Positions 37,009 through 40,370 are shown, counted from the first letter of the whole stretch. The stretch is DNA of 63,796 bases, filler included, from Globobulimina sp. (GCA_003354225.1; 38 parts of 38 records of this genome joined end to end with filler, not necessarily neighbours in it); one strand, 5' to 3'. The notes: a model not told the origin generated them from the letters alone. Numbers and translations: made by a program.

Positions 37009-37435
37009 TGGCCATGCTGGCGATGACGATTTTGACGTTGCTGTATTTTTGCTGCAGATACGAGAGATAAGTCATTAGTTTTTTGAGTCCCGGACGGATG
37101 TAAATGTGGTAATGTTCCACAGTGTGTTTGCTGACTTTGTGGTGGGATCTGTTTTTTTTTGTGATTGAGGTGTGTGGCGAGGAAGAAAGTGAAGGTTTGT
37201 TGGGGTATTTGGGCTGCGATGGGGTTTTGGAGCTGGTGCTGGTGGAAGCTGAGGAGGTGGAGGACAGAGAGTGGCTACGTCGGGGCTCGTGGCTGAGGGT
37301 GAAATGGAAATATTCTTCAACATGCTGCGATTTATAATATGGATAAGGATTATTGGATGTATAGTTACGAACTGATCGAATTAAGGTACGATCGACATCT
37401 AATACTATGGCTGCTAACTCTAACGATGAATTCAT
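37009..37435 (-). CDS. HAD-superfamily FCP1/SCP-like (NIF domain) phosphatase, 3' partial
   Basis: IVLDVDRTLI (DxDxT) and YIRPGL motifs. Confidence 0.8.
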
Positions 37436-37542
37436 CTTAATTTGTCAATGTGGTGTATTATAAAAACAAACATTCGATTGCTTTTGGCATTGACAAAAGC
37501 TAAGCTACAGTTAACTAAGTTTTTTATTCTCAAAACTAGATC

Positions 37543-38589
37543 ATGTGGTTGCTACTTTTTATTGTTGTGTATTTCGTTACAGCGCATTCATACTATTTCC
37601 AATATGGCGCGAAGCAAGTTTTAATGGATGAGTGTGGTCCGACGAATACATATATTGTCAATATACGGTTAGATAAGCCATCACAATGCAAGATTTCATC
37701 GGATATTGGCGGGCAACATTGGTGGGGAGCTGCGGACATTGAAGCTTTGAATGCATTGATTGGTATCCAAGACATTGGCGTTGCAAACATCTCTATCAAA
37801 TCCATGTCGACCATTCAACTGTTACTACCAGACGGGAATTATGAAATCATTGCCGATTTTAATAAACATATTATGTACGTTTTTACATTAAAGCGAGCCA
37901 ACGACATCACTGCATTAGGAATACCAGCAATATCTGATAACTATGTATTAATTAAAAGATGCCAAATCCAGCACGGACACGATATGAATATGCCTAACAC
38001 AGTAAATCTATCATCAGCAAGTAAACAAATATCCCGATCAATTCCGCGGAGTTCAGCTCCGCAAATTGTTGCATCCAAACCAAGGCCAAAAACAAAAGCA
38101 GAGGCAACAGGTCCGCTAATATGGACGGACAAAGACAAAGAAATAATGCAATGTAAATGGATACAATATGATGAGATGGCTGATATGCACGCGGAGGCAG
38201 CAAATGTTTATGACGCTAAAGAGAAAAAATTATTTGTTTAGTTATCTTTATATTTGCAACCAAGTAAGTTTGTGATTTAATTATTTTATTTGTAAATTAG
38301 TATCCAAATGTCGTGTTAGGTGGCGCTGCCACATTATTTTCGTTTATTTCTGCGCTTGGAAGTATGCTCCATAATGTATAATTGTGTAAATATTAAATTT
38401 ATAATAATGATATGCATTCTTTTTAGGTGACGGCAAAGACATTTTAATGCCTACGGATTGGTGTCATGTTACTGTTGGATTATTGACTGCGGCAACATCG
38501 GTAATCACAGCGGTTGGGTATACGTACGGCAATGCTGCGTTAGCTGCGCGACATGTTGCTATTAGTAATGAATATCGGTTGATGGCGAG
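37543..38589 (+). CDS. Signal-peptide protein with C-terminal SLATT-like 2TM domain; exons 37543-38235, 38301-38361, 38427 to contig end
   Basis: Two 65-nt GT-AG introns join three segments in frame: ...MADMHAEAANVYDAKEKKLF|YPNVVLGGAATLFSFISALG|S...VTVGLLTAATSVITAVGYTYGNAALAARHVAISNEYRLM. Confidence 0.7.
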
Positions 38590-38689: not shown

Positions 38690-40071
38690 AAGATTATGAA
38701 GTGTGCAATATGGTATTTGAACAACTGATCGACAAAAACAAATCCGATACGCCCTGCAAACCATTTGCGTCAAATAAAATTAATAAATCATCGGCTAACA
38801 AAGAATATGTATACATTCCATGCGGCAAAGGACCAAAAGAATGCTCTGTAACTTGGTTTGATCCAAATACGAATAAATCTCAACACTGTACTTTTGTATC
38901 CGGTTTCTCAGCAAATGCAATATTTCTAATACAAAAATGCGGATTGAAAGAAACTAAACTTGTCTTAAAACAAGATGTCAACAAAAAGCACATCAAGGTA
39001 TGTATGTAAAATAATAATAATTATTATCTACAGTGACAAATCTATTATAATTTGATATCAGTCTCCCTTTATCAATGATAAAATGGCAATGCAATTTGTC
39101 GAGTATGTAAAAACAATGCTTCATAGTAACCAAATGCTGCATATATGGACACCTTCGAATAGACCAATAATTACAACATATAAAGTATCTGGAAAACGTG
39201 GGAAATACGTATTGTACGAATATATTAAGGTAAGTGGATATAATTAATGTTTCTCCAAATTTAATAACAAATAGAAATATGCCCTTAACCTCAATAACAA
39301 AATGAATATTGCCAAACATTTGAATTTTTTATTTAGGTTAAGACATATTTGAATTTCACCGACATGAGCTAGCTCACATTATTTGTTATTAGAATCATAG
39401 AAACTACCCACTACCTTAAGTCTGAGCCGTTCTTCATCGATCTTAATAAAGAAAGAAATAAAAAGGCAGCAAAATTTAAATACCAGCGGGTTCAATCTGT
39501 ACTGACTGCAAACACAGAGAAATATGAATGTCATTCAACACCAGAAAAATTGCAAACTTTTTTCAATTCGCTTCGAGGAACATTTTTGGTGCAGCAATTG
39601 TTGGATTTGGGCGATCGCCATTTTGAAAATATTGTAATAAAATCAGATTGCACAGTGTTGAATATTGATTATGAAACCACCGATGTCAAAGGACAGCGGT
39701 GTCAACAAAATGATAAATACACATTTCCTTATTCTAGAGAATTAGATGAATATTTAACACTAATCGGTAAAAGGAATGAATTCAAACAAGCATTGTGTTC
39801 CGATTTAACAAACGTTATAAAATTGCTCCAGGGAAACCAAACAAAATTGAAGGAACTTAAATTGTATAAATTTATTTGGAATATGCGTATTAAAAAACTG
39901 AGCACATTGTTGTCTATTCATGATCCGAGCAAAGAGTGCAATTTAAACGAGATTTTTGAACGGGATAAGCGTGATATTGAGAAAAAAAATCGTGTGCATT
40001 GGAACATTATTTATTCCGAAAAAAAAAGGACAGTGAAAAACCAAACAGAAACATTCTTCAAAAATGGTTAG
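38690..40071 (+). CDS. Divergent PI3/PI4-kinase-fold protein, multi-exon, 5' partial
   Basis: LVLKQD in the first exon; LLDLGDRHFENI catalytic loop and NIDY in the last exon; internal exon boundaries not resolved. Confidence 0.7.
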
Positions 40072-40159
40072 TAACTTAGTATTCTTTATGATTTAAATGT
40101 TCATTTATTTTATTTTAGTTATTTTTTCTTCTTTTATTCTAAAGCAACCTCCAACCAGC

Positions 40160-40185
40160 TCCATGAATAATATATTATTCATGGA
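40160..40185. repeat. Perfect 26-bp palindrome TCCATGAATAATATATTATTCATGGA
   Basis: Sequence equals its own reverse complement. Confidence 0.95.
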
Positions 40186-40370
40186 CTACGACAGGGGGGT
40201 AAATTCATAGTAGAATTAGTCCGTAGGGCCTCTAGATTGAGGGGGGCTATAATATATTACAGTCCATAGGNNNNNNNNNNNNNNNNNNNNNNNNNNNNNN
40301 NNNNNNNNNNNNNNTTAATTAATTAANNNNNNNNNNNNNNNNNNNNNNNNNNNNNNNNNNNNNNNNNNNN

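Follow-up and report, generated by a model that had tools for sequence, protein, structure and literature searches.

The locus examined here raises two questions: whether the open reading frame at 37543–38235, on the plus strand, is the first exon of a longer spliced gene, and whether the protein that splicing would restore belongs to the SLATT clan. Bacterial anti-phage systems, CBASS, RADAR and reverse-transcriptase systems among them, are predicted to use SLATT proteins as pore-forming effectors; the founding SLATT paper is that of Burroughs et al., from 2015. In eukaryotes, one fungal family and some virus genes aside, the occurrence and use of the clan have barely been explored. A preliminary description of the locus had proposed a hidden gene with two introns, coding for a secreted N-terminal domain fused to a SLATT-like pore-effector domain, and had suggested that a prokaryotic conflict effector was domesticated by a protist.

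The DNA comes from the Globobulimina sp. assembly GCA_003354225.1. The window, by which we mean the whole stretch of 63,796 nucleotides that was analysed, consists of 38 contigs of 1580–1583 nt in order of length; the 37 linkers between them are identical, measure 100 nt and carry stop codons in all six frames. The contigs are unlinked, so that neighbourhood across a linker is biologically meaningless. Most genes lack both of their ends. The contig of interest extends from 37009 to 38589 (1581 nt); position 38589 is therefore the end of a contig and not the end of the gene. The GC content of the window lies between 0.28 and 0.40 throughout. Among the 73 open reading frames of at least 110 amino acids, 47 were scanned against Pfam (the 26 that were dropped were mostly overlapping antisense frames), and Pfam families, HOOK, Vps36, ALIX, TCP-1, PPR, UCH and MYND among them, were detected in 24 of the 47. 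Judged by these matches, the Pfam content of the window is what a eukaryotic nucleus would typically show. Neither RNA genes nor tRNAs were found in the window. When a hexokinase encoded elsewhere in it was compared with the PDB, structures from animals, plants and fungi were all equally far from it.

The reading frame that opens at 37543 is followed by an in-frame TAG at 38239–38241. Joining 37543–38235 to 38301–38361 and 38427–38589 gives 305 codons with zero stops and two bases left over at the contig end. The corresponding gene model continues from the first exon as follows.

38236..38300, plus strand: predicted intron 1, 65 nt, phase 0, GTTTAG...ATTAG, with GT at 38236–37 and AG at 38299–300
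38301..38361, plus strand: exon 2, 61 nt, predicted to encode the first membrane helix (residues ~232–252)
38362..38426, plus strand: predicted intron 2, 65 nt, phase 1, GTATGC...TTTTTAG, with GT at 38362–63 and AG at 38425–26
38427..38589, plus strand: exon 3, incomplete, predicted to encode a loop, the second membrane helix and the start of the next helix; ends at the contig end
38590..38689, no strand: non-biological assembly linker, consisting of 44 N, TTAATTAATTAA and 44 N

Exons and introns of this model differ in composition. The GC content is 0.39, 0.43 and 0.47 in exons 1, 2 and 3, respectively, versus 0.20 in each of the two introns, and intron 1 contains stops in all three frames. 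The frame of exon 2 opens exactly past the acceptor AG. Codon usage was scored as log-odds after training on 18 Pfam-supported stretches of open reading frames from the same window. The proposed frames of exons 1–3 received +50.5, +8.5 and +15.4 bits, and the scores were negative for the two other frames of each exon and for all three frames of both introns. The sole open frame of exon 3, which is reached via the 61-nt exon 2, runs for 59 codons up to the contig end; at the stop frequency of the window (0.058), the chance of exon 3 staying open is about 0.03. The two 65-nt GT-AG introns of the preliminary description proved exact in their coordinates, with low GC content, codon scores and the conserved first donor (see below) in agreement. 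We consider the spliced gene to be very probably real and infer that both predicted introns are removed from its transcript. Contigs from four sequencing runs were compared with the locus; none of them bridges either intron, which makes them uninformative on expression, and the body of the gene is covered by contigs of the low-depth DNA run X1 only. One X1 contig of 391 nt overlaps 38482–38589 and extends 283 nt beyond the contig end.

Other introns of the window, placed from split Pfam matches or from frame changes, measure 55, 56, 64 and 76 nt and start with GTATGA, GTATGA, GTATGT and GTAATG. Since these are similar, the size of the predicted introns and the GTATGC donor of intron 2 fit the local pattern. 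The GTTTAG donor of intron 1 is, in contrast, atypical when set against the local GTATG and GTAAT donors. This departure speaks for an alternative in which the gene model is wrong: translation would end at the TAG at 38239–38241, the product would be a soluble secreted protein of 232 residues, and the downstream open stretches would be untranslated or part of something else. Against such an outcome, exons 2 and 3 score positive only in their spliced frames, exceed the spacers in GC content and each encode a hydrophobic helix. The 64-nt intron among the local examples is a clean phase-0 one, GTATGT...ATCAG, at 38998–39061, in a PI3/PI4-kinase-like gene (Pfam E = 4.3e-7) on the next, unlinked contig, at 38690–40270.

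Relatives of the exon 1 product bear on the same alternative. They were sought with phmmer among 1.84 billion representative sequences at E ≤ 1e-3. Twenty matches were obtained, five of which were true relatives: P0001 (5e-30), P0002 (1.4e-23), P0003 (2.4e-18), P0009 (1.2e-6) and P0020 (9.6e-4). A sixth relative, P0021, is a longer member of the P0009 cluster. All are unnamed open reading frames from ENA metagenome contigs of 624–2668 nt; the contigs of P0001, P0002, P0003, P0021 and P0020 measure 2668, 2617, 1531, 2059 and 624 nt, respectively. In the family alignment, similarity peaks over the last 40 residues of exon 1 and then ends at the phenylalanine that closes the exon. The codon after the aligned phenylalanine is a valine codon (GTN) in five of five relatives; past it, two relatives stop immediately, one stops a residue later and two read on for 10–20 unconserved residues. 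Such a break at Phe-Val in all five is what a prokaryote-style gene caller entering a conserved phase-0 intron would produce, and it therefore provides independent support for the donor of intron 1. The position of this predicted intron is conserved across the family, and the gene, to judge from the alignment, belongs to a small and so far unannotated eukaryotic family of which ORF-based metagenome catalogues hold just the first exon.

The fact that every database relative is an open reading frame ending at this point may be taken in favour of termination at the TAG. However, the relatives were called as plain reading frames on short contigs and would end at the intron regardless, two continue into sequence that is not conserved, all have GTN at the junction, and a C-terminus formed by the family's most conserved helix would be odd. 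We therefore regard an early end of translation as highly improbable.

The remaining 15 phmmer matches (P0004–P0008 and P0010–P0019) were rejected as long repetitive bacterial proteins with repeat-inflated scores; the best of them gave a BLASTP E value of 12 against exon 1. Such proteins reach E values as low as 3.5e-17 against the 231-residue query via many short stretches at residues ~92–142, and P0004 also matches nine unrelated Pfam families with no single stretch passing, which is a caution for very large phmmer searches. No match was returned by a word-index protein search for exon 1 (among near lengths) or exon 3 (among longer and near lengths), by a pattern scan with the family alignment in JGI metagenomes and IMG/VR or by a pattern scan with exon 3 in IMG/VR. 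No paralogues were detected within the window by tblastn.

The part of the protein encoded by exon 1 can be divided into four segments.

37543..37590, plus strand: predicted cleavable signal peptide, residues 1–16
37591..37977, plus strand: ectodomain, residues 17–145, predicted to be beta-rich, without a known family
37978..38112, plus strand: basic Ser/Pro/Lys-rich linker, residues 146–190
38113..38235, plus strand: predicted pre-membrane helix, residues ~191–231, the most conserved part of the family

The N-terminus is hydrophobic over residues 1–19 (mean Kyte-Doolittle hydropathy, KD, 1.64), and cleavage would occur after A-H-S. The two relatives with a complete N-terminus also open with a hydrophobic core of limited length, after which small residues come (T-A-N-A or S-T-N-A), so that a signal-peptide-like start is found in all three complete N-termini. 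In the ectodomain, Cys31 and Cys49 are kept in three of three sequences and Cys140 in three of four, and the N82-x-S sequon is kept in each of the five sequences that cover these columns. An AlphaFold2 model of exon 1, built with six sequences, had a mean pLDDT of 50.6, which is too poor for a fold search; strands were modelled between residues 16 and 142 with low confidence. The signal peptide, the conserved cysteines, the sequon and the modelled strands together support the assignment of residues 17–145 as a probable luminal or extracellular domain. The secreted N-terminal domain of the preliminary description is in line with these features. The linker that follows (seven Lys and Arg versus two Asp and Glu, pLDDT below 50) varies in length among the relatives, and its alignment columns are gappy and unconserved.

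Residues W194, D198, M202, E211, H216, A220 and F231 of the pre-membrane segment are invariant in six of six sequences, and AlphaFold2 modelled a helix at 196–230 with pLDDT of 74–80. The helix encoded by exon 2 is rich in Gly, Ala, Ser and Thr and has KD values of 1.41–1.45 over 19-residue windows. Exon 3 encodes an acidic 11-residue loop, a second membrane helix at ~263–285 (KD 1.47–1.54) and a tail with 20 residues of a further helix containing A-x-x-H (H294), the rest of which is lost at the contig end. Hydropathy peaks at residues 230–253 and 263–284, together with the modelled helix, agree with the helix - membrane helix - short loop - membrane helix - helix layout described earlier, with the last helix barely begun. 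Every motif listed for the spliced product was also recovered: W194, W206, MH-x2-AA-x2-Y at 215, P-x-VVLG at 233, VGLL at 268 and A-x-x-H at 291. The flanks of the hairpin carry charges of +5/−4 versus +1/−3 in the loop. The hairpin module is truncated at its C-terminus and the domain is incomplete.

To search for known families, the Pfam, PADLOC, NCBIfam and PDB libraries were scanned with the three exon products separately, and the spliced protein was compared with profiles of our own. Nothing significant was found in Pfam, NCBIfam, PADLOC or PDB for the exon products or the relatives, the lone sub-threshold row being an NCBIfam match of P0001 (E = 0.029, 14 bits versus a cut-off of 235). 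Scans of Pfam and PADLOC at E ≤ 10 assigned no family, SLATT models included, to any separate exon product. Our own HMMs gave −0.0 bits for SLATT_4 (74 sequences) and −0.7 bits for DUF4231 (28 sequences) against the spliced protein. Profiles for the clan were made from 28 (DUF4231), 74 (SLATT_4), 5 (SLATT_3), 8 (SLATT_2), 1 (SLATT_1), 1 (SLATT_5) and 7 (SLATT_6) sequences; during seed collection, genomes with a match numbered 1 of 301, 2 of 201, 2 of 151, 6 of 151, 1 of 250 and 1 of 250. The profiles of SLATT_1, 2, 3, 5 and 6 are shallow, and negative results against these families are accordingly weak. Among the genomes searched, the DUF4231 and SLATT_3 models coincided over one stretch in each of the actinobacterial and myxobacterial reading frames L121/L234, L122/L233, L125/L236 and L124/L235, and the two families are inseparable with the sequences collected (hhalign 99.8%). 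A SLATT_6 match in a gammaproteobacterial genome (L263/L264 in G898:C112) is split by a single TAA between model positions ~143 and 151, and, lying at a short contig's end, may represent a copy that is broken or recoded.

Profile-profile comparison was carried out with hhalign for seven clan families, with five relatives added to the module over the pre-membrane helix. Only SLATT_4 gave a match in register, and a weak one: it spans 73 columns and has a score of 24.6, with P = 0.0019 and a probability of 14%. In this alignment H216 lies on SLATT_4 H19, the first and second membrane helices lie on their SLATT_4 counterparts and H294 lies on H89. DUF4231 and SLATT_1, 2, 3, 5 and 6 (profiles of 1–28 sequences) gave short off-register matches with probabilities of 0.1–0.5%. 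After correction for seven families the P value for SLATT_4 is ~0.01–0.1.

The score was calibrated with shuffled and real sequences. When all blocks were shuffled, 2 of 200 sequences reached 24.6 (mean 14.8, sd 3.0); this level was also reached by 3 of 100 sequences in which the flanks were shuffled and the membrane helices fixed, and by 2 of 100 in which the membrane helices were shuffled and the flanks fixed. Two real membrane proteins of the window were also cut into 15 pieces of 120 residues, none of which scored above 19.7. The query alone scores 19.0 versus 24.6 with relatives included. For comparison, the clan families themselves score against SLATT_4, with shallow profiles, at 26.0 for SLATT_5 (72 columns), 25.8 for SLATT_6, 24.3 for SLATT_3, 16.7 for SLATT_1, 16.0 for SLATT_2 and 33.0 for DUF4231. 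By this measure, the likeness of the hairpin to SLATT_4 is on the level found between accepted SLATT families.

These results allow a reading in which the C-terminal module genuinely belongs to the SLATT clan, as a strongly diverged member nearest to SLATT_4, a family also present in polinton-like viruses of algae, and acts as a membrane-perforating effector. The hairpin would then oligomerise into a pore once the flanking helices are released, and the gene would have been taken up by a eukaryote, possibly via a virus, before it gained introns and a secretion signal. The match in register over two invariant histidines and both membrane helices, its rarity among shuffles (1–3%) and among pieces of real membrane proteins, the rise of the score on adding relatives and the comparable level of accepted clan families (16.0–33.0) all argue for it. 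A language-model search with exon 3 also named SLATT_4 and no other Pfam family, in 11% of a cluster of Preplasmiviricota (polinton-like viruses), with a score of 0.77. However, this score is within the range reached by shuffled sequences, and the pre-membrane helix piece alone retrieved Myb/SANT clusters equally high, at 0.77, which we rejected as noise. The low hhalign probability, the P value after correction and the HMM-to-sequence scores of about zero bits likewise count against clan membership.

The invariant positions of SLATT_4, as seen in 22 sequences, include R6, G10, H16, K17, T18, H19, K21, M22, H89, R100, R124 and D125. In the hhalign register, only the two histidines H19 (H216) and H89 (H294) are matched in our protein, with positions past 305 missing from the contig. 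Finally, the signal peptide would put outside the cytosol those helices that are cytoplasmic in bacteria. Taken together, kinship of the module with SLATT is a reasonable lead, with a probability well short of even. The SLATT identity put forward for the hairpin in the preliminary description is weakly supported: its exon products are unmatched in Pfam, our own HMMs give scores near zero and the SLATT_4 match is weak.

The account that we favour, with a confidence barely above even, is that of a real spliced nuclear gene of an AT-rich eukaryote encoding a secretory-pathway glycoprotein that ends in a two-helix hairpin and is not to be filed as a SLATT member. The product would enter the secretory pathway via its cleaved signal peptide. 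Its ectodomain would be disulfide-bonded, N-glycosylated and beta-rich, with the basic flexible linker next, and the C-terminal part would be made of the conserved amphipathic helix and a hairpin whose two helices are of moderate hydrophobicity and contain many small residues. The first membrane helix would serve as a stop-transfer sequence, the 11-residue loop would lie on the cytosolic side and the second helix would return the chain outward, so that ectodomain, conserved helix and the C-terminus lost from the contig would share the luminal or outer side. Oligomers may form through packing of the Gly/Ala/Ser/Thr-rich helices. Secretion, topology and oligomerisation of the product are all predictions from its sequence.

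Several points go against this account of a hairpin-anchored glycoprotein. KD values of ~1.4–1.5 are only moderate, and insertion into the ER membrane could fail, in which case the protein might be secreted rather than anchored. The slight positive bias of the flanks weakly argues against the proposed topology, as it better fits the bacterial arrangement with both termini inside. The weak SLATT_4 signal, in turn, may mean that the module does belong to the SLATT clan. The hairpin may also insert in the bacterial way, or it may stay uninserted in the producing cell and so yield a secreted pore-former.

Judged from the bacterial consensus, the flanking helices of SLATT proteins are basic and presumably cytoplasmic, where nucleotide signals are. 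With a signal peptide and a glycoprotein-type domain ahead of the hairpin, a cytoplasmic nucleotide-gated suicide pore is hard to reconcile with the sequence of our gene. An improbable further reading would combine clan ancestry with export: an intron-bearing SLATT descendant turned inside out and joined to a signal peptide and a glycosylated ectodomain, its hairpin buried until a target membrane is met, would act as a secreted or surface pore-former against other cells or an intracellular compartment. If this were so, the gene would supply the first case of a SLATT-type module employed from the outside, in a lineage so far represented by few metagenome fragments. Secreted alpha-helical pore-forming toxins of the colicin and ClyA types have a buried hydrophobic hairpin. 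The likeness of our protein to these toxins, a moderately hydrophobic hairpin between amphipathic helices, is one of architecture alone.

Comparison with SLATT_4 (PF18186) reveals both likenesses and differences. Both have a helix with a conserved histidine, a first membrane helix, a short loop, a second membrane helix and a helix with a histidine ~10 residues past the membrane; in both the membrane helices are rich in small residues, and the profiles match weakly in register. In contrast to SLATT_4, the module of the gene lacks the H-K-T-H-E-K-M signature and most other invariants, has no score at the HMM level and has a loop that is longer by eight residues. The gene also adds a signal peptide, an ectodomain of 130 residues and predicted spliceosomal introns, and it is known from a 1581-nt contig without a nucleotide-signalling partner. 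DUF4231 and SLATT_1, 2, 3, 5 and 6 resemble it in having two membrane helices with helices on either flank. SLATT_fungal (PF18142), the eukaryotic branch of the clan and hence the most obvious candidate for comparison, has a similar two-helix layout. Its Pfam model did not match the separate exon products of our gene, and it gave zero matches in five bacterial genomes.

Genome context and domain fusions link SLATT to producers or sensors of nucleotide signals, such as SMODS, SLOG, TIR and reverse transcriptases, according to two reports (PMC7159879, PMC9226505). No SMODS, SLOG, TIR or reverse transcriptase-type domains were found among the 47 scanned reading frames of the window, the contigs of which are in any case unlinked to the gene. 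Two other reports place SLATT_4 genes in polinton-like viruses of Tetraselmis and in adinto-like viruses of eukaryotes other than animals (10.1101/2025.10.09.676808, PMC8502044), which speaks for the reading with true clan membership. A virus-borne SLATT_4 gene is a conceivable route into eukaryotic genomes. Were the module a true SLATT, a eukaryote would have rewired a pore effector for the secretory pathway, and the gene would bear on the transfer of immune or killing modules between domains of life. The earlier proposal that a protist domesticated the effector, possibly for use in immunity or cell death, is speculation. Should kinship fail, the gene would still define a new small family of eukaryotic membrane glycoproteins.

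The contig carries one other gene, which is the only linked neighbour.

37009..37435, minus strand: 5′ part of a NIF/FCP1-like phosphatase gene (weak Pfam NIF match at E = 8.9e-4, short of the cut-off and covering the DxDxT region)

The two genes are divergent, with about 98–107 nt between their start codons. The region 37009–37483, which includes the phosphatase-like gene, is covered by contigs from sequencing runs with three organism labels. Contigs of run X5 are near-identical to the window, and those of X6 and X7 are 90–95% alike. Relative to the window, X6 and X7 show a 33-nt skip at 37143–37175 and a 6-nt deletion at 37228, in a low-complexity Ser/Thr/Pro stretch, and one X5 contig has adapter-like letters at 37027. 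The X5, X6 and X7 contigs all stop near 37483, between the two start codons.
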